Origin: Mobula hypostoma
Lineage: Eukaryota
Assembly (NCBI RefSeq): GCF_963921235.1
Contig: NC_086101.1
Span: forward strand, 86,304,001 to 86,368,000
Reading direction: 5' to 3'
DNA: 64,000 nucleotides
Shown here in pieces: positions 11,617-59,915 of this stretch. The notes beneath the pieces were generated by a model. The model had not been told where the DNA came from. It made no database searches and saw only the letters and a list, made by a program, of their open reading frames with translations. Within the stretch, counting starts at the first letter, position 1. Each line of letters begins with the position of its first letter. Position numbers and translations under genes: made by a program.

Positions 11617-12890
11617 CACTAGCAAGCTTTATAGTGTACTGGTCAGACTACATTTAGAGTTTTGTGAGCAGTTTTGGGTCCTACATCTAGGAAAGGGTGT
11701 GCTGGTATTGGAGAGGGTCCAGAGCAAGTTTTTGAGAATGATTTCAGTAATGAAAAGTTTAATATGTGAGAAATGTTTGATGGCTCTGGGTCAGTACTCG
11801 CTGGAGTTTAGAAGAATGAGGGTGATCCTGACTGAAATCACTGAATATCGAAAAGCCCAGATAGTGCAGACACTGAAATCACTGAATATCGAAAAGCCCA
11901 GATAGTGCAGACACTGAAATCACCGAATACCGAAAAGCCCAGATAGTGCAGATACTGAAATCACCGAATACCGAAAAGCCCAGATAGTGCAGACACTGAA
12001 ATCACCGAATACCAAAAAGCCCAGATAGTGCAGACACTGAAATCACCGAATACCAAAAAGCCCAGATAGTGCAGACACTGAAATCACCGAATACCGAAAA
12101 GCCCAGATAGTGCAGACACTGAAATCACTGGATACCGAAAAGCCCAGATAGTGCAGACACTGAAATCAATGAATACCAAAAAGCCCAGATAGTGCAGACA
12201 CTGAAATCACCGAATACCGAAAAGCCCAGATAGTGCAGACACTGAAATCACCGAATACCGAAAAGCCCAGATAGTGCAGACACTGAAATCACCGAATACC
12301 AAAAAGCCCAGATAGTGCAGACACTGAAATCACCGAATACCGAAAAGCCCAGATAGTGCAGACACTGAAATCACTGGATACCGAAAAGCCCAGATAGTGC
12401 AGACACTGAAATCAATGAATACCAAAAAGCCCAGATAGTGCAGACACTGAAATCACCGAATACCAAAAAGCCCAGATAGTGCAGACACTGAAATCACCAA
12501 ATACCAAAAAGCCCAGATAGTGCAGACACTGAAATCACTGAATACCAAAAAGCCCAGATAGTGCAGACACTGAAATCACCAAATACCGAAAACCCCAGAT
12601 AGTGCAGACACTGAAATCACCGAATACCGAAAACCCCAGATAGTGCAGACATGGAGAGGATATTTCCAATGGTAAGGGTTCAGAATAGTGGGATATCCCT
12701 TTTGAAAAAAGATGAGGAGGAATTTCTTTAGCTATTGGAGGTTGACAGTTTCTTGATTAGAATGGACATCATGGTTATGGGGAGAAGGCAGGAGAATTGG
12801 ATTAAGACAGAAAATAGATCAGCCATGATCAAATGATGGAGCAGACCTGATGGGTGAATGGGCTGATTCTGCTCCTTTGTCTTATGATAA
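11617..12890 (+). mobile_element. CR1 LINE 3' fragment containing an expanded minisatellite
   Basis: LVRLHLEFCEQFW, LERVQSKFLRMI and YSLEFRRMR upstream of the array; CR1 sequence resumes atggagaggatatttcc and ends in the CR1 3' UTR. Confidence 0.8.
11831..12650 (+). repeat. Minisatellite, 20 x 41 bp (actgaaatcaccgaataccgaaaagcccagatagtgcagac)
   Basis: Unit starts at 11831, 11872 and so on; 820 bp / 41 = 20 copies with few variant positions and no spacers. Confidence 0.97.
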
Positions 12891-14349
12891 TTAGTAATTG
12901 CTACATAACATTTGCTGAACATTTATCATAATCTTGTTACATTTGGTGTGAAAGCAGAGAGCAGATAATGTCGTCATTCGACCAAAGAGTAAGGATCTTG
13001 TTCATGTAATTTTTAATGAATAGTTTATTATTTTGTAAAGAAAACATCTTCCAGGTTAATAAATCATTTTTGATTGGAACAGCTGGAGCTTAATAAAAAT
13101 GTCCACTGTTTAAAAATGATTCAAGAAACTTCACACAAGTCATGGATTTTCAACTTGTACATATGTGAGGCCAGCTATAAAGGGTCATCTGTATTATAAA
13201 ACACATAACAAATTACATAAATGACCACTTTCAAGGATAGATTTTCTGTTTTGAAAGGGATTGGTTCAAACTAAAATGGTAAAGGAGTCAACTATTTTAA
13301 CCTACCGTAGAAAGGAGGACTATCAGCAACTTTTAAGTGAATGAGTGCATGGGAGGTTTCAATCGTAGGATTAAAATTTTTACCTCTCCAAATCTACAGG
13401 CTAATTTGCACCTTTTTGTTGATCTGTTATGTCAGAAACTGCTATGGAAACACCAGTCTATTCATCTGTTCTGCGGATTTTAATATTTTTAGTGGTCCTC
13501 ATTATTAATAAAAAGAATAATAAATGTAATTAAAGGTAAGGAGCCAGTGAATTGGAAGAATTGGGTGAAATGTTAGCAACAACACCAGATATAATCTGCT
13601 GGAAAGAAAAGGAAAATTACGATGATTAATGGAACGTCTGCATCAGATGAGGACCATGTGAGTGACAGGAAACTAAACAATTTCCAATATGTGCTTAGCA
13701 CAGCAGACAACACTCTAGCTTGTTCAGTTTTTAATTTTTCAGTAGTATGCCTCTGGCTAGATGTAAAATTTTCTTTTTTTTCTTGAAAATAGTTGAATAG
13801 TCCATTTATGTATACAATCACTTGATAGCTAGAAATGTCAGAAAAATTAGTAAAAATGTTTTGGTAGATAAATTTTGCCAATGAGTTAAAATGATACAAA
13901 ATAAATGTAGAATTATTGCTCCTCTTTTTTTTCTTTGATGTTATTACTTTAAGTTTGAATACAAGTTTGGTTGATGATGTATTTTTTTCCCAATCTTTTT
14001 AACTACTTGCATTGAATAAATATATAGAGAACTGATAAAGTACTAATACTTTAAATTATAATGAGTCTGAAGTTTGTAGAAGCACTCATGTTTGATCATT
14101 AGGATTTGTAGTTAGAATAAATGAAATTCTACCCACAACTTTGTGTGTACTTTTCACAGTGAGATTTTAAATGTTTGCAGACTAGCAGAATTTCCCAGCC
14201 ACTTTTACCTCCATGTTGCACTCATGTATGTTTCTTCCTGGAGTATCAATGAACCAAGTTCCTGGATTGGAGTTTTAATGTCGCATACCTCCATTTTGTT
14301 GCTTTTTACTTGTACTTCAACCAAGTAGCATATTGTAACAAAACTTGAC

Positions 14350-14780: not shown

Positions 14781-16144
14781 TCTTATTTAGTAAATAATTA
14801 TGAATATAATCTAGCCAATTCTTGTTGCAGTGGGCAATTTTCCTGCTATGTAAGTTACTGTAAACCCATGTAATGCTTGATCTGTATAACGTCCCCATGA
14901 CTGACAGGAATGTGTTCAGTTCTCTCTGCTTAGGGTCCCTGTGTCTCCATGGATGTTGCAGTAAGCCATTGGCTCCAATCTAACGTATGCTCTAAAGCAC
15001 AAGCTGAGAGCATAATGGACACTACAACATCAGATATACATGCCTGTCTTTCTTGTCACGTCCCAGACAGCAGCTTTCAGCAAGCTTCTGTTTAATTAAT
15101 GGGTGCATGGCCAATGGGAAAGCAAACTGATGTTTTAAAGTTCCCAAATTAATGAAAAAAAGGAATCAACAAAAAAGTTGCCACAGAGCAAATGACAAAG
15201 CAAGGGTAAACCTGTGCAGAAAGGAAACAAGGAATTGAGGGGTAAAATATTAAGAACCGGTGATTAGGTAAGAAATGAGAAACATGCCAAACAATGCTTG
15301 AGATTGACAAATATTTTTAAAGGTGAAAATTTTACAGAAGCCCAAAGAAATTAAGCAAAAAGCAGAAAGCTTGGGACCTGGGTTATCAGAGCAAAAATGT
15401 GGGAACAGAAGCAAATGAAAATGAAGGTACCAGGAAAGATTGTGGAGAGAAATTTCAACATAGTATTAACCCACATTACTTGTCTTCTATGTGAAGAATA
15501 TACCAAGTTCAATATACTTCTTTTTCCCATAATATTTATGTTAACCTCTTACCTGTAACCAATACTGCATCTAACTTAAATTATGCAGCGACATCTAAAA
15601 AAAAAGACATAGAGCAGAATAAACATATAAATATTTTAAAGTACAATATCAGGAATGGCAGAAGAAGACAAAGCTAAAACTAATTACATTTATTTTTTTT
15701 AAAAAGCCATTTTAAACTTACTTTTGTGAAAGAATCTCAGCTTGTACTTATTTCCTAAGGTAAATAGTGTTCTGTGAGAGAAAACAACCTATTGATCTCC
15801 ATCAATGCTTTCCTGATTGACACTTCATCAGTGGTCAAATATGTAATTATTTCTTTGCCTTTTTTTGCATGCCAACTTAGGTTTTATATAATAAACATAT
15901 ATTTTCTACATTGGCAGTTATCCCCAAAACTATGCTTGAAAATCAAATGTCATTATCTGAATTACAGCTAGTATTGAATTTACATTATGTGAATTAATGA
16001 TATGTTAAAGGTTGCAGTCCTAGACGAAATGCATTTGAGTCTTGGGAACTGCTAAAGTAGAGAAGAGAAATTCAGACCAGCATTAGAATCCTGATGTCAT
16101 GCATCAGGTGCACACTGAAATTTGCTTTATATACCAGAATGAAT

Positions 16145-16600
16145 TCACCAATTTGTAAGTGACCTCCCCCATTTACAGTCTCCTGCTCCATCTCTGGAAA
16201 CGTCATACTGCACCTTGAAACCCACAAATCTGAAGTGAAAGACTTGATATAGGGATATTGTTGAAGAAGCAGATAGAGACATGTTATATAGAAAATGGAA
16301 CAAAGCAGAATGGGATTTTTGAGTCAATTTTTGTGAGGTGCTTAGCCTTTCCCACTTTATCAATACAGTCATCCACTCTCCTTCCTTGTTCCTTCTTGTT
16401 TCCAATTTCTTGTTCAACCATTTTACTTTCCTCTAAATTCATTTTGTAAGGATGCTGGTTGATGGGCTGGGCTGAATTTACAATGATGTCATGCACTGCA
16501 GCTGTGTACTGTCTTGGAATGCCAGGAAATAAATCTTTATGCTTGCTAATTAATTCTTTCAATTGTTTTTGCGGTGTAGGCTCCAACTGATGGACCTTAT
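16145..16600 (-). mobile_element. Gypsy LTR retrotransposon pol (RT N-terminal) fragment
   Basis: QLKELISKHKDLFP...VHDIIV.SAQPINQHPYKMN...VEQEI...VDDCIDKVGKAKHLTKID. Confidence 0.75.
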
Positions 16601-16888
16601 CAATCCATAATGTCCGAGCTGAACAAGATGCCAAATTAAACTTAATCTCTCTCTGCCTGCACATGATCCAGCTCCCGCTATTCCTTTGGTTATGTTTTGT
16701 TACTCCAAAATATCAAACTAATTCAGGCCAAGGCATGGGAGTCTGGGAATGCAGGTCTCACTTCGAGTTTACTTTAAGGAAGGGTGCACATATCATGTGG
16801 TAGTATGATTACCTTTAATGAATTATTGAAATGAACAAGAATGCTGAAATATATATATTAAACACTCCACACCACCAGCCCCTCCCCC

Positions 16889-26964: not shown

Positions 26965-28439
26965 CAGTCCCTATAAAAAATATTCACCCCCCCCCCAAAG
27001 GTTTTATGTTTTATTGTTTTACAACACTGAATCACATTGGATTTCATTTGGCTTTTTTCATAGTGATCAACAGAAAAGACTCTTTTGTGTCAAAGTGAAA
27101 AGAAGCCTCTAAAAAATTGGTCAAAATGTATTACAATTATTGAAAACAAAATAACTAATTGCATAATACACATCCCCTTCAATTTTTGTAGATGTACTTC
27201 AGGCAGCAATTACAGCCTTGAGTTTGTGTGGATAGGTCTCTATCAGCTTTGCACATCTGGACACTGCAACTTTTACCCATTCTTCTTTAAAAAAACTGCT
27301 CAAGCTCTGTCAGATTGCATGTGGGTCATGAGTGAATGGCCCCTTTCAAGTTCAAGCACAAATTCTCAATTGGATTGATGTCTGGATTGTGACTTGGCCA
27401 CTGCAAGACATTAACTTTATTTTGTTGTATTCATTCTGCCCTTTACATTCACAAGCCTTCCAGGGCCTGCAGCAGTGAAGCACCCCACAGCATGATGTAG
27501 CCACCACTATGCTTCATGGTTAGGATGGTGTGTTTCTGATGGCTTACGCCAAACGTAGCATTTAGTCAGATGGTCAAAAAGCTCAATTTTGGTTTCATAA
27601 GACCATAGAATCTTCTTTCAGCTGACTTCAGAGTCTTTCACATGTCTTCTGGCAAACTCTAGCCAAGATTTTCATGTGAGTTTTTTTTAACAAAGGCTTT
27701 CTCTTTGCCACTCTCCCATAAATCTGCAACTGGTGAAGCACCTGGGCAACAGTTGTATGCGCAGTCTCTCCCATCTCAGCCATTGAGGTTTGTAGCTCCT
27801 CCAGAGTTGTCATATGTCTCTTGGTGGCCTCCCTCACTAGTCCCCTTCTTGCAATGTCATTCAGTTTTTGAGGACGGCCTGCTTTAGGCAGGTTTACACC
27901 TGTTCTATATTCTTTCCATTTCTTGCTAATTGACCTAACTGTACTCCAAGGGATATTCAGTGACTTGCAAATTTTCTTGTACCCATCTCCTGATTTGTCC
28001 TTTTCAATAACCTTTTCGAGGAGTTGCTTGGAGTGTTCTTTTGATTTTGTGGTGTAGTTTCTATCAGCATACTGACTCACCAGCAGTTGAACCTGTCAGA
28101 TACAGAGATACAATCAATTGAAACACTATGACTCCACACAAGTGATCTCCATTTAACTAACTATGTGACTTCTAAAACCAAATGGCTGCACCAGTGACAA
28201 TTTGATATGTCATATTAAAAGGGGTGAATACTAAGGCAATCAACTATTTTGTATTTTATATTTGTAATTAATTTAAATCCCTTTGTAGAGATCTGTTATC
28301 AATTTTACATGGAAGAGTCTTTTTCTATTTATCAGTGTCAAAAAAACCAAATTACATTCACTGTGATTCAATGTTGTAAAAGAATAAAACCTGAAAACTT
28401 CGGTGGGGGGGGGTGGTTGAAAACTTTTTAAAGGCATTG
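26965..28439 (-). mobile_element. Tc1/mariner transposon, degenerate with an internal deletion
   Basis: TA flanks; ~210 bp TIRs (cagtccctataaaaaatattcaccccc / ggg..gaaaactttttaaaggcattg). Transposase HTH region with GRPQKL in ORF 27628-28080, followed by WSYETKIELF, HSGGYIMLWGCF and WPSHNPDINPIENL. Confidence 0.92.
27628..28080 (-). pseudogene. Tc1 transposase N-terminal DNA-binding region (frameshifted; catalytic domain degenerate)
   Basis: SKEHSKQLLEKVIEK.KSGDGYKKICKSLNIPWSTVRSI.KKWKEY...GRPQKL; the first catalytic D reads Y and the second-D segment appears deleted. Confidence 0.85.
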
Positions 28440-35924: not shown

Positions 35925-36352
35925 CAAAGTTCAAAGTGATATTTTTATCAAAGTATGTGTAAATTATACAACCTTGAGATTTGTCTCCTTACAGGCAGCC
36001 ACAAAACAAAGAAACCCAAAAGAACCGATTTAAACAAGATACAGTCAACCACCCAATGTGCAGAGAGAAAAAAAATCGTGCAAAAAATAAACACAAGCAA
36101 AAGCGTTCAGAACTGAAGTTTTATGAAAGGCATCACTGCAAATGGAGCAGGCCACAGTCTCAGTTCAGCGCAGCATCGAATAAATGCCCCGACACCACAG
36201 ACATGAAGCTAGGCTTCACTGCAGCTGAAGCAGGCCACCGCCTCAATTCAACATAGACATTGCGGAGCAGCGAGCAAAACCAGGCAGAATGGGCCCATCA
36301 CTTAGCTCCAGTCCCGACACCTTGACTTTTTCAATCTGGCTCGGCACTTAAA
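35925..36352 (-). mobile_element. Same unclassified repeat family as 1-370 and 54215-54640
   Basis: ttcaaagttcaaag...ttatcaaagtatgt...caggcagccacaaaacaaagaaacccaaaagaacc...gacttttt caat is shared among copies. Confidence 0.6.
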
Positions 36353-36529
36353 TCATATGCTCAGTCTTTCTACTGCTTTTAACTTGCAATGCCCTTTTAC
36401 TGACATCTGTTTTTGAATACACATAATTCTCTCCAATTGTACATTGTGTAAAACAAACTGATTAACTTCAATCGCTCCCAAAATTATTGTCCTTTGCCCA
36501 CCAGGTCCATCGTCCTCCCTGGTCATTGA

Positions 36530-36721
36530 CAAGGAGCTGAGAGATTTGATTTTTAACTTTATGTGAGGCACACACTTATCACATGGTATCATGATGACAT
36601 ATGCAATTCACGTATTTCAGCATATAACCCATAATGAATTATATAAACTATAATGAATGCTTAATCAAGCAATATGTATGCAAGCTAACTCAAATATTAC
36701 TGAAGTATTAAATAGACAGCA
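36530..36721 (-). repeat. 3' LTR (truncated at its distal end)
   Basis: caaggagc...cacacttatcacatggta..atgatgacatatgcaattcacgtattt...gaatgcttaatc...atattactgaagtattaaata aligns with 39552-39760; preceded on the minus strand by a purine tract at 36722-36730. Confidence 0.85.
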
Positions 36722-37010
36722 CTCCTCCCTGCTTAGCTATAAACTCCAACTCAATAGAGAATGCATCTCAACTGTATACTGTATAATACAACTACTCTAC
36801 AACAGTACAGTCAATTTTTAAATTGTCCACTTCACTGATGAGGCTTTCATGCTCTTATGGGATAACATCTTTCCTAACAAGCGGAATCACTCTGCTTGGC
36901 AGGTGAGAATTGTGGCTGTGAAAATAATCTCAGGTTCTGGGGTCTCCTCCGTGGGGTTGTAGGAATTGATGCCGAGATTGCAGGACATGGTTCTGACAGC
37001 TCTGGACACT

Positions 37011-37713
37011 TTTCTTCTCCTTCGTTTTTCTTCCAGTTTGTTCATTTTGATCTTGGAAAGGTGCATTTAGCTCACTGGAATATGCTCTTATTAATCCTTT
37101 TATTAACCCTTTTATTACCACATCTTTCCTCTTGGTTTCTATGTCCACAACATCACCTGACAAATCCTCAGTTTTTGTGTCTCCATTAACTCCCTTCTTT
37201 TTGGCCTTTTAATCAAGCAGGTGGGCTTTGGTCTTTGCATCTAATTCTGCAAGCTTTTTATCTCCCACTTGAAGTTATTTTTTATTTCTGTTACTTTGCA
37301 CTACTTATTTAAATATTCAGTATATACCTTATATACATACTGTAATGCACAGCTTTTTTTCTCCCTCTTTTATTATGTATTGCATTGTATTGCTGCTGCA
37401 AGGTTAACAAATTTCCTGACATATGCCGATGACATTAAATCTGATTCTGATTCATATAATAACCTCAATGCACGCAGTGTAGATTCTGGTTCTTTATACT
37501 CACAAAAGCCGAATGCTTGCAACTTTCCTGAAGCTCTTTGAGCTCTCTTCCAGCTTAAAGCCAAGCCACATTTTGCAAGTAATTGTCCAATTAACTTATC
37601 AGAAGCTTTCTCAGGTATGCTGCCTACAAAAACTGTCATAGTCAGACCGCGACTTCTGTCACTTCAACAATTCCTCTGGTCCAATATGTTTTCCAACCAG
37701 AGGCACAGAGGCA
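37011..37713 (-). pseudogene. RBM25: Processed RBM25 fragment (RRM plus downstream segment), interrupted by a LINE tail at 37275-37450, with an in-frame stop
   Basis: Translates SVPLVGKHIG...TVFVGSIPEKASDKLIGQLLAKCGLALSWKRAQRASGKLQAFGFCEYKEPESTLRALRLLYE|LQVGDKKLAELDAKTKAHLLD*KAKKKG...ETKRKDVVIKGLIKGLIRAYSSELNAP...RKTKEKK, collinear with vertebrate RBM25 as recalled. No introns; TAA at 37209-37211. Confidence 0.92.
37275..37450 (+). mobile_element. Short LINE 3'-end insertion splitting the RBM25 fragment
   Basis: Ends acaaatttcctgacatatgccgatgacattaaatctgattctga, similar to the Rex1 3' end at 43550-43600. The RBM25 frame rejoins exactly across it (tat gaa | ctt caa), so it is not a GT-AG intron. 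Confidence 0.75.
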
Positions 37714-37779
37714 CCTGTTTGTCACCAGCTGGGCAACAGTGATTGTGTGTGGCATGGAGACAGCTGTGGCATCATCTTG

Positions 37780-39290
37780 TACTTTTCCTTATTCACTTTC
37801 AGTTGGCTTCATTGCAGGGGATGTGGCATGTAAATGATGGATGTATCTCCAATCAAGTTGTAATACCTTAGCCAATCACATCTCCACAATGATGGCCAAC
37901 CTATTTTTTTAATATCACATACAAGCTCAATGTGGCTTGTTGGTTGTTGTATTTCACTGTTACAAATGTCATTCCCACAGGAATTATCTTTTCTCCAGTA
38001 TAAATTCTTTGTTGGATACTTGTCAGGCTTCAGCTTAGTATCTTTGAAATGCTGTTCAAAGTAATTTTGTGGAATAACTGAAAAAGCTGAGCCAGTGTCC
38101 AATTCCATTTTAATTATTTTGCCATTCCATATAACCGTATAACAATTACAGCATGGAAACAGGCCATCTCGGCCCTTCTAGTCCTTCACTTCTAGTGTTA
38201 GCCATATCGCTTGTCTATTATTACTTTTGACATTGTGAATCTCAAAGCTAGCCTGTGTCACCCTCATCATTATCAGATTTTTTTCATCATCAGCATGCAG
38301 ATTAGTGCTCTTTTTGAAACTACAACTTGACTTTTTAACTTTTTCTCTTTCTCATGCAGGCCATTTATTTCTGTTCAAAATGCTCTTTGTATGTGTCCTA
38401 CTTTTTCAGATTTTCCGTAGGTTTCGCTTTTAAACCTGCATTGGTGTCATCTATGTGAGACCCTACCACAATGGTAACACAATTTGTCTGGCCAGGCTAG
38501 TTTTTGTTTGTCCATTCCAACCTTGTTCACACAACTGCATCTCAATTTCTCTTTTGTTTGCTTTTTCAATTCATACAACTATTTCAACTGCTCATTTAAA
38601 TGAAAGCTGTGCTTCAGTTAGGTGCCGTTTTTTAATGCTTTCTTGTAAGATTTCACAAACTAAATTATCTCTCTGCGCATCATTAAGCTTAATGTAGAAC
38701 TGACAAAACTCAGACAATCTCTTCAATTCAGCCAAGTATGCTGAAACGGACTCCCCATCTTTTTTTTTTATTTCTGCTTATGAAATCTAAACTGTCCTGC
38801 AATTAACAATGATTTTAGTTCTAAATAATTATTTTCACAATATCATCAAAGCTAATTTTGGCTGGTTAGTTGGAGCAGTTAAACTTCGATGCAAACTGTA
38901 AACTTTTAAATCCAATGCACTCAGCAAAATTGGTACTCCTTTCTCATTGGCAATTTAATTTACCTCAAAGCACTGTTCAATTAGCTCAATATGTTGTTGT
39001 TGTTCAGTCATTTAGTCAAGTCTGACTCTTCATGACCTCATGGACCATATGTTTTCATGGCAAGATTCAGAAGTAGATTGCCAGTCCCTTCTGCCGCATA
39101 TACTGATACTGCTGCTCCCCAGGTTGGGACCCAGCTGGGTTTGAACTCAGGACCATCTGCCTTGAAATCCAGTGTTGATGCCACAACACCACCAGCTGGC
39201 CCTCTCTCAATATACATAAACCAGATAACTGTTAAGATATTGAACGTGTAATCTTTATGATGTAGGCAGCCAATCCTGCTTTTTCATTAT
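37780..39290 (-). pseudogene. Gypsy gag-protease remnant
   Basis: Gag motifs at 38600-39250, CCHC knuckles at ~38385-38487 and aspartic protease DTGS at ~38088-38099; multiple stops and frameshifts; short CR1 tail insert at ~38128-38184. Confidence 0.85.
38993..39205 (-). mobile_element. tRNA-head SINE with an RTE/BovB-like tail, inserted in gag
   Basis: Minus strand shows A-box-like tggtgttgtgg, B-box gagttcaaacc and the tail ggtccatgaggtcatgaagagtcagacttgactaaatgactg(aac)n; 8-bp TSD ctcaatat (38985-38992 / 39206-39213). Confidence 0.8.
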
Positions 39291-39504
39291 CATCTGGTGC
39301 TCAATGTTTATGAACCCATGAATTCTTCAGTTTTCTGCCTATTTTAACTCAACTGTGCCTGCATGAACTGCAGTGTGCTGATATTTTTCCCCACCCACCA
39401 GCTCCACGGCGCACTATTTATTTATTTAACTCAAATGACTCGCAGTTCTTCAACAGGTTGGCAGCCATCTAAGGTTTGTTTAAAAATATGTATCTCCTCA
39501 CCAC

Positions 39505-39760
39505 TGTTACATTTTGTATCTCCCAAAACATTAAACTATTTCGAGGGAAACCAAGGAGCCAAGAGACGGGAGCTTATCTTTGTCTTTTACTTTAAGCGAA
39601 GTGCACATTTATCACATTGTAGCATCATGACATATGCATTTCACGTATTTTTACATAAAACCCATTGTTAAATATATAAACAATAAAGAATGCTTAATCC
39701 AATAATATACATATTTACAAGATTAATTAGATATTACTGAAATATTAAATATACTACACA
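39505..39760 (-). repeat. 5' LTR
   Basis: TG...CA ends (tgttac...ctacaca); PBS-like sequence adjacent at 39491-39503. Confidence 0.88.
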
Positions 39761-39889: not shown

Positions 39890-40775
39890 CACACAGTTGC
39901 CACTTTATTTGAAGTCCCCTCTATATAATAATGTGGCCACTAAGTGTATGTTCGTGATCTTCTGCTGCAGTAGCTCATCCACTTCAAGGTTTGACATGCT
40001 GTGCATTCAAAGGTGCTTTTCTACACATCACTGCTGTTACTGTACTGTTGTGTGTGCTTATTTCTACACATCACTGCTGTTGCCACACTGTTGTGCGTGG
40101 TTATTTCTGTACATCACTGCTGTTACTGCATTGTTTTGTGTGGTTATTTCTACGCATCACTGCTGTTGCTACACTGTTGTGTGTGGTTATTTCTACACAT
40201 CACTGTTGTTACTGCACTGTTGTGTGTGGTTATTTCTACACATCACTGTTGTTACTGCATTGTTTTGTGTGGTTATTTCTACACATCACTGCTGTTAATG
40301 CATTGTTTTGTGTGGTTATTTCTGTACATCACTGTTGTTACTGCACCGTTGTGTGTGGTTATTTTGAGTTACTCTCACCTTCCTGCCAGCTTGAACCTGT
40401 CCTTCCCTTCTTCTCTGACCTCTCTCATTAATAAGGCATCTTTGCCCACAGAACTGCCACTCGCTCATTCTTTCTTTTGTTTCTCGCACCATCCTCTGTA
40501 AACTCTAGAGACTGCTGCGCATGAACATCCCATGGTATCCGCAGTTTCTGAGATGCTCAAATCACCCTGTCTGGCGTCAACAATTAGATCACATTTCTTC
40601 CCCATTCTGATGTATGCTCTGAACAACAACTGAGTGTCGACCATGATTGCTCAAAAAAAATATATATATATCATCTCCACTGCTATGCATAGAGTTGCAG
40701 CCACATGATTGGCTAATTAGAGATTTGCATTAATGAGCAGGTGTGCTGGTGTACCTAATAAAGTGGTCACTGAAT
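39890..40775. mobile_element. Tc1-derived non-autonomous element (MITE-like)
   Basis: TIR-like ends cagttgccactttatt / aataaagtggtcactg in a TA-rich context. Confidence 0.7.
40015..40362 (+). repeat. Minisatellite, ~8 x 43 bp (ttatttctacacatcactgctgttactgcactgttgtgtgtgg)
   Basis: Unit starts at 40058, 40101, 40144, 40187, 40230, 40273, 40316 and 40359. Confidence 0.95.
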
Positions 40776-45033: not shown

Positions 45034-45287
45034 TGCTGTGCATTTATATATTTCAGTAATATTTGAGTAATATTGTAGATATATTGCTTAAGTATTCTAT
45101 GTTGTTATGTTATTTATTTATTATATAATTTAATTACAGGATATACTGTATATAAATGTATGTGAATGGCATACGTCATTACAGCTTTATGTCATATGTG
45201 CAAAACAAAGACCATATGTATGCGAGTTATCCCTGCTCCGTGTTTATCTTTTGATTAGTTGTACGTTTTGGAGTTAAAAATATAACA
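45034..45287 (+). mobile_element. Solo LTR of the same Gypsy family with a 5-bp TSD
   Basis: TG...CA ends; gaagg at 45029-45033 and 45288-45292; reverse-complement similar to 39505-39760. Confidence 0.85.
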
Positions 45288-46026: not shown

Positions 46027-48871
46027 GACAAGTTAGGGAAACATTTAATTGGAGTAAGGGGAAATATGAGGCTACCAGGCAGAAACTTGGAAACATAGAA
46101 ACATAGAAACATAGAAACATAGAAACATAGAAAATAGGTGCAGGAGTAGGCCATTCGGCCCTTCGAGCCTGCACCGCCATTTATTATGATCATGGCTGAT
46201 CCTCCAACTCAGAACCCCGCCCCAGCCTTCCCTCCATACCCCCGACCCCCGTAGCCACAAGGGCCATATCTAACTCCCTCTTAAATATAGCCAATGAACT
46301 GGCCTCAACTGTTTCCTGTGGCAGAGAATTCCACAGATTCACCACTCTCTGTGTGAAGAAGTTTTTCCTAATCTCGGTCCTAAAAGGCTTCCCCTCTATC
46401 CTCAAACTGTGGCCCCTTGTTCTGGACTTCCCCAACATCGGGAACAATCTTCCTGCATCTAGCCTGTCCAATCCCTTTAGGATCTTATATGTTTCAATCA
46501 GATCCCCCCTCAATCTTCTAAATTCTAACGACTACAAGCCCAGTTCATCCAGTCTTTCTTCATATGAAAGTCCTGACATCCCAGGAATCAATCTGGTGAA
46601 CCTTCTTTGTACTCCCTCTATGGCAAGGATTTCTTTCCTCAGATTAGGGGACCAAAACTGCACACAATACTCCAGGTGTGGTCTCACCAAGGCCTTGTAC
46701 AACTGCAGTAGTACCTCCCTGCTCCTGTACTCGAATCCTCTCGCTATAAATGCCAGCATACCATTCACCTTTTTCACCGCCTGCTGTACCTGCATGCCCA
46801 CTTTCAATGACTGGTGTATAATGACATCCAGGTCTCGTTGCACCTCCCCAAAGAAGCATAAATTGGAAACAGATATTCTCAGGGAAGCGTACAGAAGAAG
46901 TGTGGCAAATGTTCAGGGGATATTTGCGTGGGGTTCTGAGTTGGTACGTTTCAATGAGACATGGAAAGGATGGTAGGGTACAAGATCCGCTAGCAGGAAG
47001 GAGCTGAAGAAAGAAATTAGGAGAGCCAGAAGGAGCTATGAGAAGGCCTTGGCAGACAGGATTAAAGAAAACCCCAAGGCATTCTACAAGTATGTGAAGA
47101 GCAAGAGGATAAGACATGAGAGAACAGGACCAATCAAGTGTGGCAGTGGAAAGGTGTGTATGGAACCGGAGGAAATAGCAGAGGTACTTAACGAATACTT
47201 TTTGCTTCAGTATTCACTACGGAAAAGGATCTTGGTGATTGTAGGGATGACTTGCAGTGGACTGAAAAGCTTGAGAATGTAGATACTAAAAAAGAGGATG
47301 TGCTGGAGCTTTTGGAAAGCATCAAGTTGGATAAGTCATTAGGATCGAACGGGATCTACCCCAGGCTACTATGGGAAGCAAGGGAGGGACTGCTGAGCCT
47401 CTGGCAATGATCTTTGCATCATCAATGAGGACAAGAGAGGTTTTGAAGGATTGGAGGTTTGCAGATGTTGTTTCCTTATTCAAGAAAGGAAATAGGGATA
47501 GCCCAGGAAATTATAGGCCAGTGAGTCTTACTTCAGTGGTTGGTAAGTTGATGGAGAACATACTGAGAAGCAGGATTTATGAACATTTGGAGAGGCATAA
47601 TATGATTAGGAATAGTCAGCATGGCTTTGTCAAAGGCAAGTCATGCCTTACGAGTCTGATTGAATTTTTTGAGGATGTGACTAAATACGTTGATGAAGGT
47701 AGAGCCGTAGGTGTAGTGTATATGGATTTTAGTAAGGCATTTGATAAGGTACCCTATACAAGGCTGATTGATATCCAAGGGGACATTGTTTTGTGGATCC
47801 AGAAGTGGTTTGGCCACAGAAGGCAAAGAGTGATTGTAGACAGGTCATATTCTGCATGGAGGTCGGTGACCAGTGGTGTGCCTCAGGGATCTGTTCTGGG
47901 ACCCCTACTCTTTGTGATTTTTATAAATGACCTGGATGAGGAGTGGAGGGATGGGTTAGTAAACTGGCTGATGACACAAAGGTTGGGGGTGTAGTGGATA
48001 GTGTGGAGGGCTGTCAGAGGTTACAACGGGTCATTGATAGGATGAAAACTGGGCTGAGAAGTGGCAGATGGAGTTCAACCCAGATAAGTGTGAGGTGGTT
48101 CATTTTGGTAGGTCAAATATGATGGTAGAATATAGCATTAATGGTAAGACTCTTGTCAGTGTGGAGGATCAGAGGGATCTTGGGGTCCGAGTCCATAGGA
48201 CACTCAAAGCTGCTACGCAGTTTGACTCTGTGGTTAAGAAGGAATATGATGCATTGGTCTTCATCAACCGTGGGATTGAGTTTAAGAGCTGAGAGGTAAT
48301 GTTGCAGCTAAATAGGATCCTGCTCAGACTCCTCTTGGAGTACTGTGTTCAATTCTGGTCGCCTCACTACAGGAAGGACGTTGAAACCATAGAAAGGGTG
48401 CAGAGAAGATTTACAAGGATGTTGTCTGGATTGGGGAGCATGCCTTATGAGAACAGGTTAGAAAACTCGATCTTTTCTCCTTCGAGCGATGGAGGATGAG
48501 AGGTGACCTGATAGAGGTGTATAAGATGATGAGAGGCATTGATTGTGTGGATAGTCAGAGGCTTTTTCCCAGGGCTGAAATGGCTAGCATGAGAGGGCAT
48601 AGTTTTAAGGTGCTTGGAAGTAGGTATGTAGGAGATGTCAGGGGTAAGTTTTTTATGCAGAGAGAGGTGAGTACGTGGAATGGTCTGCCGGCAATGGTGG
48701 TGGAGGTGGAAATAATAGGGTCTTTTAAGAGACTCCTGGATGGCTACATGGAGCTTTGAAAAATAGAGGGCTATGGGTAAAGCCTAGGTCATTCTAAGGT
48801 AGGGACATGTTCGGCACAGCTTTGTGGACCGAAGAGCCTGTATTGTGCTGTAGGTTTTCTATGTTTTTATG
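46027..48871 (+). mobile_element. CR1 LINE (B) ORF2 RT region, frameshifted, interrupted by CR1 (C)
   Basis: FNWSKGKYEATRQKLG|SINWKQIFSGK across the insert; [53 protein letters not shown]; tail tttctatgtttttatg. Confidence 0.92.
46091..46850 (-). mobile_element. Young CR1 (C) 3' fragment with (CATAGAAA)n tail
   Basis: ORFs 46532-46843 and 46190-46513 give the ORF2 C-terminus (LVRPHLEYCVQFWSP); near-identical to 58669-59405. Confidence 0.95.
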
Positions 48872-52869: not shown

Positions 52870-54865
52870 TGGTAAATTGGTTTATTATTGTAACATCTAG
52901 CGAGGTAGGGTGAAAGGCAACTTGTCTTGTATTCTGTACTCACAGATCATTTCACTAGAAAACAACAGCAGAATACAGAATAAAGTGAGGCAGTTACAGA
53001 GAAAGAGCATTGTAGGAAGACAAGGTGCAAAGTCAAAAGAAGGTAGATTGACAGGTCAATTGGTGTGGAGGGCAATGTTCCCTCTAAGGTGTGCATGTGT
53101 GCATGTGCATACATCTTTTGCTACTAGTACACAAAGGAATTTAAACTGCGCACAAAAGGTTATCATCTTGTTGGCATGTTAAGTATATTTCACGATCGAA
53201 CACAATCACATTTCCTTTTCCGGTTTCTGATGCAGATGGTGTTGAAGACGTGGAGTTTGCGATGATTTGTTGCAGATTTTAGAACTGGCTTATTTATACC
53301 GGTTTTATTGAAGAAATTATTGATTCACTGTGTCAAATTCCAAAGAAGCAAAGGGTGTGAAGCACAAAAGAACTGCTAGTTCATGTAATGCTGAATGGCT
53401 TATGTAATTAAGTTATGATACTGTGCTGTATACAATGATTTCTAAATAAAATACCTTTCTCAATATTTTATCAACTAGCTTTCTAATTTTATAAGTTTTG
53501 TTTGATCATTTCAAACAACTTTAACATGTAAGTAGATTGATATTATTACATGTTGTCGTACAGTGTATGAGAAATAAGACATATTGATGTAGATTATTAT
53601 ATTTATTTTAAACAATGGACAACAAACGGGACTTGGTAGCTTATTATCCTTAGAATCACTTCAGGTTTACTTCCACTTAATAATTCAGAATGCATATGTT
53701 GTTGTCACTGGGCAAAAAAAATCATTACAAATCAGAGGAAACATTGGGGAGGGGGTCTGTTTAATAGACTTATAATAGTGGGATAGAAGTAGCCTGGTGG
53801 TGCATGCCTTCAGGTTGTTGTACCCTATGCCTAAAGGAAGGAGGGAGAAGAAAGAAGGTCTGTGGTGTGTGGAAGTGTGTGGAACTATGTTGGCTGCTTT
53901 ACCAACACAGAGAGAAGTGTAGACAGAATCTATGGAAGGGAGGTTGATTTCTGCGATGTGCAGAACTCCGTATGTCCATGGCCACAGACACAGCAGTTGC
54001 CATATCAAATTATGATGCATCTAAATAGGATGACTTCCATGGCACATCATTTTTTTTAAAGCTGATGATCAGAGAGTACATGCCAAATTTCTTTAGCTTC
54101 CTGAAGAAGCAGAGGTGTTTGGTGAGCTTTCTAGGCTGTGGAATCTATGTGATAGTACCACGACAGGCTCTTAGTGATATTTATTCTTAGGAACTGGAAG
54201 CCCTCATCATCTGAAAGTTCAAAACACATTTATTAACAAAGTATGTATGTACACATTGTACAAGCTTGAGGTTCATCCCCTTGCAGGCAGCCGCAATCAA
54301 AGAAACCCCAAAAGAACCCATTAAAGAAAAGTCTATCAAACCTTAAATGCACAGAGAAAAAAAAATGCAAACAATAAAAGTAAGCAAATAGCATTCAGAA
54401 CTGAGATTTTACAAAAGACAAGAAGCAAAGCATCATTGTAGCTGCAGTAGGCCACATCACTGAGCAAAGAGCAGATCCAGACAGAGCCTGCCCATCCCTT
54501 GAATCCGGTTCCAACACCCTGACCTTTTCAATTTCACCCAGAAATTTAATTATCCAAACTCTCAGACGGCTCTACAGCCTGGACCCCGCCACCATACTTA
54601 GGCCCATACCCGGCCTTTCCAATTTAGCCCAGCCACAAGAACTTTGTTGCAGACAAGAGCACATCACCATTCTCTTCATGAAATCAATGATCTAATCTTT
54701 TGTTTTTTGACATTGAGGGAAAGTTTGCTGTCATGGAATCACATCAGCATCTGCTTCCTGTACTCCAACTCATTATTTGAGATGCAGCACACTACAGTGG
54801 CATCATGGATCATATCTTAGATGAAGTTAAAACAGGATCTGGCCACACAATTGTAAATGTATAAT
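52870..54865 (-). mobile_element. Rex1/Babar fragment interrupted by a MITE (53073-53746) and the 54215-54640 repeat
   Basis: LPSIDSVYTSLCVGKAANIV...FFSLLPLG..YNNLKACTTRL; pieces at 52870-53072, 53747-54210 and 54660-54865. Confidence 0.65.
53073..53746. mobile_element. Non-autonomous TIR DNA transposon (hAT-like)
   Basis: TIR caatgttccctct / agaggaaacattg; imperfect G-rich TSD gtggaggg / gggagggg. Confidence 0.65.
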
Positions 54866-57712: not shown

Positions 57713-58668
57713 CATAGAAACATAGAAACATAGAAAATAGGTGCAGGAGTAGACCATTCGGCCCTTCGAGCCTGCACCACCATTCAATATGATCATGGCT
57801 GATTATCCAACTCAGAACCCTGTACCAGCCTTCCCTCCATACCCCCTGATCCCTTTAGCCACAAGGGCCATATCTAACTCCCTCTTAAATATAGCCAATG
57901 AACTGGCCTCAACTGTTTCCTGTGGCAGAGAATTCCACAGATTCACCACTCTCTGTGTGAAGAAGTTTTTCCTAATCTCAGTCCTAAAAGGCTTCCCCTT
58001 TATCCTCAAACTGTGACCCTTTGTTCTGGACTTCCCCAACATCAGGAACAATCTTCCTGCATCTAGCCTGTCCAATCCCTTTAGGATTTTATACATTTCC
58101 CCCCTCAATCTTCTAAATTCCAACGAGTATAAGCCTAGTCGATCCAGTCTTTCATCATATGAAAGTCCTGCCATCCCAGGAATCAATCTGGTGAACCTTC
58201 TCTGTACTCCCTCTATGGCAAGAATGTCTTTCCTCAGATTAGGGGACCAAAACTGCACACGATACTCCAGGTGTGGTCTCACCAAGACCTTGTACAACTA
58301 CAGTAGTACCTCCCTGTTCCTGTACTCGAATCCTCTTGCTATAAATGCCAGCATACCATTCACCTTTTTCACCATCTGCTGTACCTGCATGCCCACTTTC
58401 AATGAAGGCTGTATAATGACACCCAGGTCTCGTTGCACCTCCCCTTTTCCTAATCGGCCACCATTCAAATAATAATCTATTTTCCTGTTTTTGCCACCGA
58501 AGTGGATAACCTCACATTTACCCACATTAAATTGCATCTGCCATGAATTTGCCCACTCTCCTAACCTATCCAAGTCACCCTGCATCCTCTTAGCATCCTC
58601 CTCACAGCTAACACTGCCGCCCAGCTTCATGACATCCGCAAACTTGGAGATGCTGCATTTAATTCCCT
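57713..58668 (-). mobile_element. Young CR1 3' fragment (copy 1)
   Basis: (CATAGAAA)n tail; ORF2 C-terminus in ORFs 57812-58297 and 58298-58762. Confidence 0.95.
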
Positions 58669-59915
58669 CATAGAAACATAGAAACATAGAAAATAGGTGC
58701 AGGAGTAGGCCATTCGGCCCTTCGAGCCTGCACCGCCATTTATTATGATCATGGCTGATCATCCAACTCAGAACCCAGCCTTCCCTCCATACCCCCTGAC
58801 TCCTGTAGCCACAAGGGCCATATCTAACTCCCTCTTAAACATAGCCAATGAACTGGCCTCAACAGTTTGCTGTGGCAGAGAATTCCACAGATTCACCACT
58901 CTCTGTGTGAAGAATTTTTTTCCTAATCTCGGTCCTAAAAGGCTTCCCCTCTATCCTCAAACTGTGACCCCTCGTTCTGGACCTCCCCAACATCGGGAAC
59001 AATCTTCCCGCATCTAGCCTGTCCAATCCCTTTAGGATCTTATACGTTTCAATCAGATCCCCCCTCAATCTTCTAAATTCCAACGAGTACAAATCTAGTT
59101 CATCCAGTCTTTCTTCATATGAAAGTCCTGACATCCCAGGAATCAATCTGGTGAACCTTCTTTGTACTCCCTCTATGGCAAGGATGTCTTTCCTCAGATT
59201 AGGGGACCAAAACTGCACACAATACTCCAGGTGTGGTCTCACCAAGGCCTTGTACAACTGCAGTAGTACCTCCCTGCTCCTGTACTCGAATCCTCTCGCT
59301 ATAAATGCCAGCATACCGTTCACCTTTTTCACCGCCTGCTGTACCTGCATGCCCACTTTCAATGACTGGTGTATAATGACACCCAGGTCTTGTTGCACCT
59401 CCCCTTTTCCTAATCGGCCACCATTCAGATAATAATCTGTTTTCCTATTTTTGCCACCAAAGTGGATAACTTCACATTTATCCACATTAAATTGCATCTG
59501 CCATGAGTCTGCCCACTCACCCAACCTATCCAAGTCACCCTGCATCCTCTTAGCATCCTCCTCACTGCTAACACTGCCACCCAGCTTCGTGTCATCCGCA
59601 AACTTGGAGATGCTGCATTTAATTCCCTCGTCCAAGTCATTAATATATATTGTAAACAACTGGGGTCCCAGCACTGAGCCTTGCGGTACCCCACTAGTAA
59701 CCGCCTGCCATTCTGAAAAGGTCCCGTTTATTCCCACTCTTTGCTTCCTGTCTGCTAACCAATTCTCCACCCACACCAATACCTTACCCCCAATACCGTG
59801 TGCTTTAACTTTGCACACTAATCTCCTGTGTGGGACCTTGTCAAAAGCCTTTTAAAAATCCAAATATATCACATCCACTGGTTCTCCCCTATCCACTCTA
59901 CTAGTTACATCCTCA
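58669..59915 (-). mobile_element. Young CR1 3' fragment (copy 2) including the RT core
   Basis: 319-aa ORF 58859-59818 with [26 protein letters not shown] and LVRPHLEYCVQFWSP; own CATAGAAA tail at 58669-58692. Confidence 0.96.

Follow-up and report, generated by a model that had tools for sequence, protein, structure and literature searches.

A decayed Ty3/Gypsy element of Mobula hypostoma carrying a partial RBM25 copy in place of its pol core, probably acquired by LTR-mediated retroposition

A degenerate Ty3/Gypsy element is located at positions 36530-39758 of the window (i.e., the whole stretch of 64,000 nt of Mobula hypostoma DNA that was analysed) and contains a part of the RBM25 gene at the place of its pol core. 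The data establish the layout of the element, the loss of pol, the decay, the matching ages of insert and LTR pair and, indirectly and for one exon junction, the spliced origin of the insert. The best reading of these features is LTR-mediated retroposition of a spliced RBM25 RNA via a double template switch, with a probability of roughly 75%. The element is thus a decayed, clear example of an already known route of host-RNA copying. The original prediction had proposed an LTR-mediated RBM25 capture in a cartilaginous fish; the capture stands as the best-supported reading, but the mechanism has already been described for Gypsy elements of a fish.

All parts of the element are read on the minus strand. 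Their order is the one that had been predicted (5′ LTR, PBS-like site, gag, protease, RBM25, pol tail, PPT, and 3′ LTR), as determined by colinearity with the Gypsy-type protein P0122, the LTR alignment, and the RRM_1 domain. From the 5′ to the 3′ end of the element, the features are the following:

39505-39758 (−): 5′ LTR, 254 nt, complete, TG...ACA; ends set by comparison with the solo LTR 45034-45287
39494-39503 (−): PBS-like site, TGG starting at 39503, one base past the 5′ LTR
38187-39217 (−): decayed gag to protease start, 137/263 aligned residues identical to P0122; 5 stops, 7 frameshifts
38993-39205 (−): later insertion in gag, which we take to be SINE-like; 8-bp TSD (39213-39206 / 38992-38985), no library match
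38438-38479 (−): first CCHC knuckle, motif residues intact, stop inside
38127-38184 (−): later insertion of ~58 bp at the protease start, presumably resembling a CR1/SINE 3′ tail
37759-38126 (−): aspartic protease and linker, DTGS at 38099-38088, P0122 aa 296-416; ends before the RT domain
37759-37769 (−): 5′ copy of a direct repeat, abutting the 5′ junction
37715-37758 (−): spacer at the 5′ junction, 44 nt between the Gypsy and RBM25 matches
37451-37714 (−): first part of RBM25, region preceding the RRM and the greater part of the RRM; RNP2 at 37633, RNP1 at 37519, first sure codon at 37709
37275-37450 (+): 176-bp insertion splitting the RRM, a later repeat without GT-AG ends; its short tandem tail is, we assume, like a LINE 3′ end on the plus strand
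37011-37274 (−): second part of RBM25, RRM end and linker to the Lys-rich run; inferred exon junction near 37183
36841-37010 (−): Gypsy pol C-terminal tail (PELS ... ERCYP), matching the P0122 C-terminus
36722-36734 (−): polypurine tract (PPT), a purine run before the 3′ LTR
36530-36721 (−): 3′ LTR, last ~55 nt gone

The LTR pair forms a direct repeat with its copies 3,033 nt apart and 78% identity over 179 columns, interrupted by one 4-nt gap. The predicted 3′ LTR is present but incomplete: the loss of its end is revealed by a solo LTR at 45034-45287 (+), which belongs to a related family, is complete, has a 5-bp TSD, and shows the ends of the family. The missing part was not found in the 200 nt downstream, where 216 of 632 control windows scored as high. 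Four LTRs of the element's LTR family exist in the window, and the two of the element match each other with 78 bits vs. 19 and 18 bits to the other two. One further LTR of the family, internally shortened, is positioned at 16693-16864 (−), followed by an ORF (16287-16712, −) with no Pfam matches, which presumably resembles the protease-RT linker of another Gypsy family. Directly past the cut 3′ LTR lie ~220 nt (36310-36532, −) without a copy elsewhere in the window, and beyond them a repeat at 35926-36132 common to 54214-54420 and 1-128. A 43-bp minisatellite of ~9 units (39975-40404) is found 200 nt upstream of the 5′ LTR.

Earlier homolog searches with the protease and gag pieces gave no matches, whereas the full HMMER search with the gag piece succeeded and returned 2,122 proteins at E ≤ 0.001. 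Among the best 150 of these, the long relatives that were scanned (13 of 150) contain gag, protease, RT, RNase H, and integrase in Gypsy order. P0122, the closest protein among the matches listed, is colinear through its aa 21-416 with 38993-37759 (137/263 and 64/119 residues identical), with 6 stops and 10 frameshifts in this range. The gag with CCHC knuckles is in part confirmed, as the second knuckle, at 38419, is degenerate. The LTRs, PBS and PPT, together with the gag-CCHC and protease homology, assign the element to Ty3/Gypsy by sequence similarity, no RT being left for a clade tree.

The tail had been described as the Pro/Ser/Thr-rich end of a Gypsy pol. In accordance with this, its alignment to the P0122 C-terminus scores 77, against a mean of 36 and a maximum of 55 for 60 shuffles. 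The absence of RT, RNase H, and integrase motifs also holds: six pol queries found no trace of them in the element (best E 0.18). Alignment to the full-length relative P0123 places the gap at approximately aa 400-1227, corresponding to ~2.5 kb of missing RT, RNase H, and integrase. The element, lacking its own copies of these enzymes, is a non-autonomous derivative.

The RBM25 segment is ~530 bp long, i.e., about one-quarter of the CDS, and is placed in sense to the element with both mRNA ends missing. It contains an RRM_1 domain above the Pfam cut-off. A 70-aa RRM query matched 348 proteins; among the 120 of these that are listed, all gene-named ones are RBM25 and none is a gag-RRM fusion. 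A PDB sequence search gave other RRMs only. The closest relation is to a Heptranchias protein, P0007, whose aa 24-205 are matched by 37709-37451 and 37274-37011, interrupted solely by the 176-bp insertion. Of 175 codons, 133 are identical to P0007, whereas none of the other 83 named proteins exceeds 114; in the variable linker, the corresponding values are 45 of 63 vs. at most 35. This agrees with a host among the cartilaginous fishes. The segment ends at the Lys-rich run; in full-length relatives, ~570 codons follow before the stop. There is no poly(A) at the segment, and the longest A run nearby sits within the later insertion. The sense orientation, the internal position in the mRNA, and the lack of poly(A) agree with what had been predicted.

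Two stops, a frameshift, the 176-bp insertion, and decay at the neutral level rule out a functional retrogene. A LINE-made processed pseudogene with the mRNA 3′ end and poly(A) was also rejected, as the segment has neither. In its present state, the RBM25 frame is offset by one base from that of the protease, and the original relation of the two frames is hidden by old indels.

Exon borders were deduced from breakpoints in 83 named RBM25 gene models, of which 4 have a break where the VLVP motif begins, 7 have one near NG, and 10 just past the Lys-rich run. Since models break near NG and the segment reads through this position (~37183) without an intron, at least one exon junction seems to be crossed intronless. 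This supports, for the junction thus placed, the predicted absence of introns. Two more exon junctions are presumably contained in the RRM of the segment, as in the human gene. The 176-bp insertion was examined as an intron and rejected by its ends and by the lack of any break of a named model at its position.

Dating from the divergence of the LTRs, as the original prediction had proposed, gave a Jukes-Cantor (JC) distance of 0.265, i.e., 0.133 per copy (0.091-0.179). The minimum non-synonymous distance of RBM25 from the shark protein is equally JC 0.133 (95% 0.094-0.178), a value biased low by the minimum count and high by shark-host divergence, with wide intervals. At 102 conserved codons the distance is 0.109. 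A neutral simulation at 0.13 gave 74% identity and 2.7 expected stops, compared with the observed 76% and 2. Because the RBM25 decay of 0.13 equals half the LTR-LTR distance, the segment has evolved neutrally for roughly the time since the element integrated, with intervals wide enough for a somewhat later insertion.

LTR-mediated retroposition is preferred because the pol core is replaced and not interrupted, the Gypsy match stopping at P0122 aa 416 and resuming in the tail. The insert is in sense, cut at both ends, and tailless, and the cis elements for reverse transcription are retained. Insert and LTR pair have matching ages, the similarity between the two LTRs greatly exceeds that to other family LTRs, and the linker is shark-like. 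These features are also the hallmarks given for such events by Tan et al. 2016 (PMC5131818). The course of events may have been as follows. A Ty3/Gypsy particle would have co-packaged RBM25 RNA. During minus-strand synthesis, the reverse transcriptase would have copied the PPT and the pol tail, jumped to the RBM25 RNA in a purine-rich run, copied ~530 nt over spliced exons, and returned to the RNA of the element immediately past the protease, thus skipping ~2.5 kb of pol. Microhomology could have guided both junctions. The chimeric cDNA, having kept both LTRs, the PBS, and the PPT, would have been inserted in trans as one unit by a helper integrase, and would then have decayed neutrally and gained three later insertions.

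Some observations speak against this reading. The insert lies between the copies of a 10/11 direct repeat (p about 0.016), a feature not needed for template switching, a 44-nt spacer interrupts the 5′ junction, and LINEs dominate the window, while non-LTR content tracks retrocopy numbers in vertebrates according to a preprint (10.64898/2026.06.26.734816).

The last point leads to the alternative that survives best, although it is unlikely. A 5′-truncated RBM25 retrocopy made by a LINE would have landed in a resident Gypsy element, and a single later deletion would have taken its 3′ part, poly(A), and second TSD along with the pol core. The window is rich in LINE RT fragments, and cartilaginous fishes are rich in retrocopies whose counts track non-LTR content, as stated in the same preprint. 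The element was also hit by insertions three further times and is missing its 3′ end, and four family LTRs are present within 64 kb. On the contrary, this scenario requires an internal hit in the Gypsy element, in sense, followed by a deletion of several kb which spared the tail and the PPT. Furthermore, the matching ages of insert and LTR pair argue against it.

The spacer was compared with several candidate sources. As a continuation of the Gypsy sequence it was rejected (284 of 300 null cases score as high), and likewise as the end of the captured block (223/500 and 475/500). A weak match to P0007 aa 15-24 (1/1000 null) came from one comparison out of about eight and partly involves residues that seem to stem from an intron. 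Short stretches of the spacer (8-9-mers) recur 15-80 nt upstream, as can be the case for templated filler. These repeats, together with the missing poly(A), would fit a double-strand break in a resident Gypsy element that was patched with RBM25 cDNA or RNA-templated DNA, resection having removed pol and filler having been left at the 5′ junction. Such a repair is improbable: the orientation and the preserved PPT and tail would be due to chance, the ages match, and de novo filler of 2-26 bp also occurs at LTR switch points in the cases of Tan et al. (PMC5131818).

At the other end, the 3′ junction lies in a GA-rich run, where the frames of RBM25 and the tail could overlap. Sequence past it was compared with downstream RBM25, with a negative result. 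The 3′ copy of the flanking repeat (37005-36995) is within the Gypsy tail, 5 nt from this junction; among 3000 random pairs of zones, 48 reach the score of the observed pair. The prediction of no TSD is therefore qualified by this direct repeat around the insert. The repeat is probably native Gypsy sequence because each copy reads in place as Gypsy codons, aligned to AADV and PELS of P0122. A competing but very unlikely explanation takes the repeat as the TSD of a tailless, internally primed LINE retrocopy that entered an already deleted Gypsy element. The proximity of the repeat to both junctions and the A-rich run at the end of RBM25 are in its favor, and tailless mRNA copies of therians, truncated at both ends and with TSDs, are described in PMC5322556. 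Against it, both copies read as native Gypsy codons, and the insertion must have struck the exact point of the pol deletion. Finally, a misassembly or the chance neighborhood of two unrelated Gypsy remnants around an unrelated pseudogene, which could be suspected from LTRs merely 78% identical and the missing TSD, is hardly credible, since the Gypsy halves are colinear on the same strand with LTRs of the same subfamily and all parts are equally decayed and bear nested insertions.

Within LTR-mediated retroposition, the template could have been other than a full mRNA. The first sure codon follows one inferred exon border at a distance of 5 codons, and the last codon precedes another by 2. Because the segment starts and ends so close to such borders, the chimera might be a copy of an extinct ray/shark Gypsy family that spread the RRM block of RBM25, derived from an RNA delimited by exon borders, either a circular RNA comprising the RRM exons or an incompletely spliced species. 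This is a speculative and doubtful extension. The search for a back-splice junction found none, neither between the downstream sequence and the block start (152/500 null) nor between the spacer and the block end (values as above). If it were true, the family would parallel the LTR-flanked circRFWD2 pseudogenes outside mammals and could be a source of piRNAs directed against a core splicing factor. The idea of the original prediction, that a non-autonomous family spread an RRM fragment behind gag-protease, finds no support: no second copy of the chimera was found within the 64-kb window, the copy decayed neutrally, and RBM25 is out of the protease frame.

LTR-mediated retroposition is already known from published work on flies, chicken, mouse, and zebrafish, the last with Gypsy cases among them: in Tan et al. 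2016 (PMC5131818), 3 of 5 zebrafish LTR cases, among 11 rows listed, are Gypsy-flanked. Similarly to the present element, these cases comprise a partial mRNA cut at both ends, which replaces an internal LTR ORF and lacks poly(A); some have filler at their junctions, comparable with the 44-nt spacer. They differ in being young (<10% diverged vs. ~13% here), in having measured microsimilarity, and in some cases in having several insertion sites, while the Mobula element is single as seen. Cartilaginous fish are not among the six species of that study. Maize Bs1, as summarized there, is also an LTR element with captured exonic host sequence, but this sequence comes from three donors, the element occurs in 1-5 copies that share their switch points, and it encodes a chimeric protein; no such features are seen here. 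The KIT-ligand and nectin3 captures of crocodilian ERVs (PMC4299795) likewise represent host mRNA in LTR elements of a non-mammalian vertebrate; they are retroviral, multi-copy, and consist of whole ORFs under purifying selection, whereas the present case is Gypsy, partial, and neutrally decayed. The circRFWD2 pseudogenes (PMC4897178) are LTR-flanked, tailless, and made of internal exons only, to which the ends of RBM25 near inferred borders can be compared, but they show a back-splice junction and many copies.

In a literature search of incomplete coverage, neither an RBM25 retrocopy inside an LTR element nor a comparable shark or ray case came up. The preprint mentioned above puts the number of retrocopies in cartilaginous fishes at 14,081 and connects retrocopies with non-LTR elements. 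The element would thus extend LTR-mediated retroposition to a group whose many retrocopies are usually credited to LINEs, and indicates that its signature survives ~13% decay. Being one dead copy, it alters the picture only slightly; its weight would grow if a genome search revealed a family of many copies or a circular RNA as the template.

Rfam and ARAGORN gave no matches in the window, and the Pfam scan of its ORFs covered 10 of 59 long ORFs. A 141-aa ORF at 13576-13998 (−) has a thioredoxin-like match below the cut-off (E 0.006) and low-score atlas leads, probably by chance. At ~15553-15594 (−), a stretch of 42 nt has splice acceptor and donor sites that look strong, but stops in all three frames, and is possibly a non-coding or pseudo-exon. 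A remnant of a Tc1/Sleeping Beauty-type transposase is located at 27631-28095 (−). Young LINE RT fragments at 57713-59851 (−) and 46110-46849 are 93-96% identical, one pair being in tandem with a 956-bp offset. A tandem array with an 82-bp period and units ~95% identical extends over 11831-12651.
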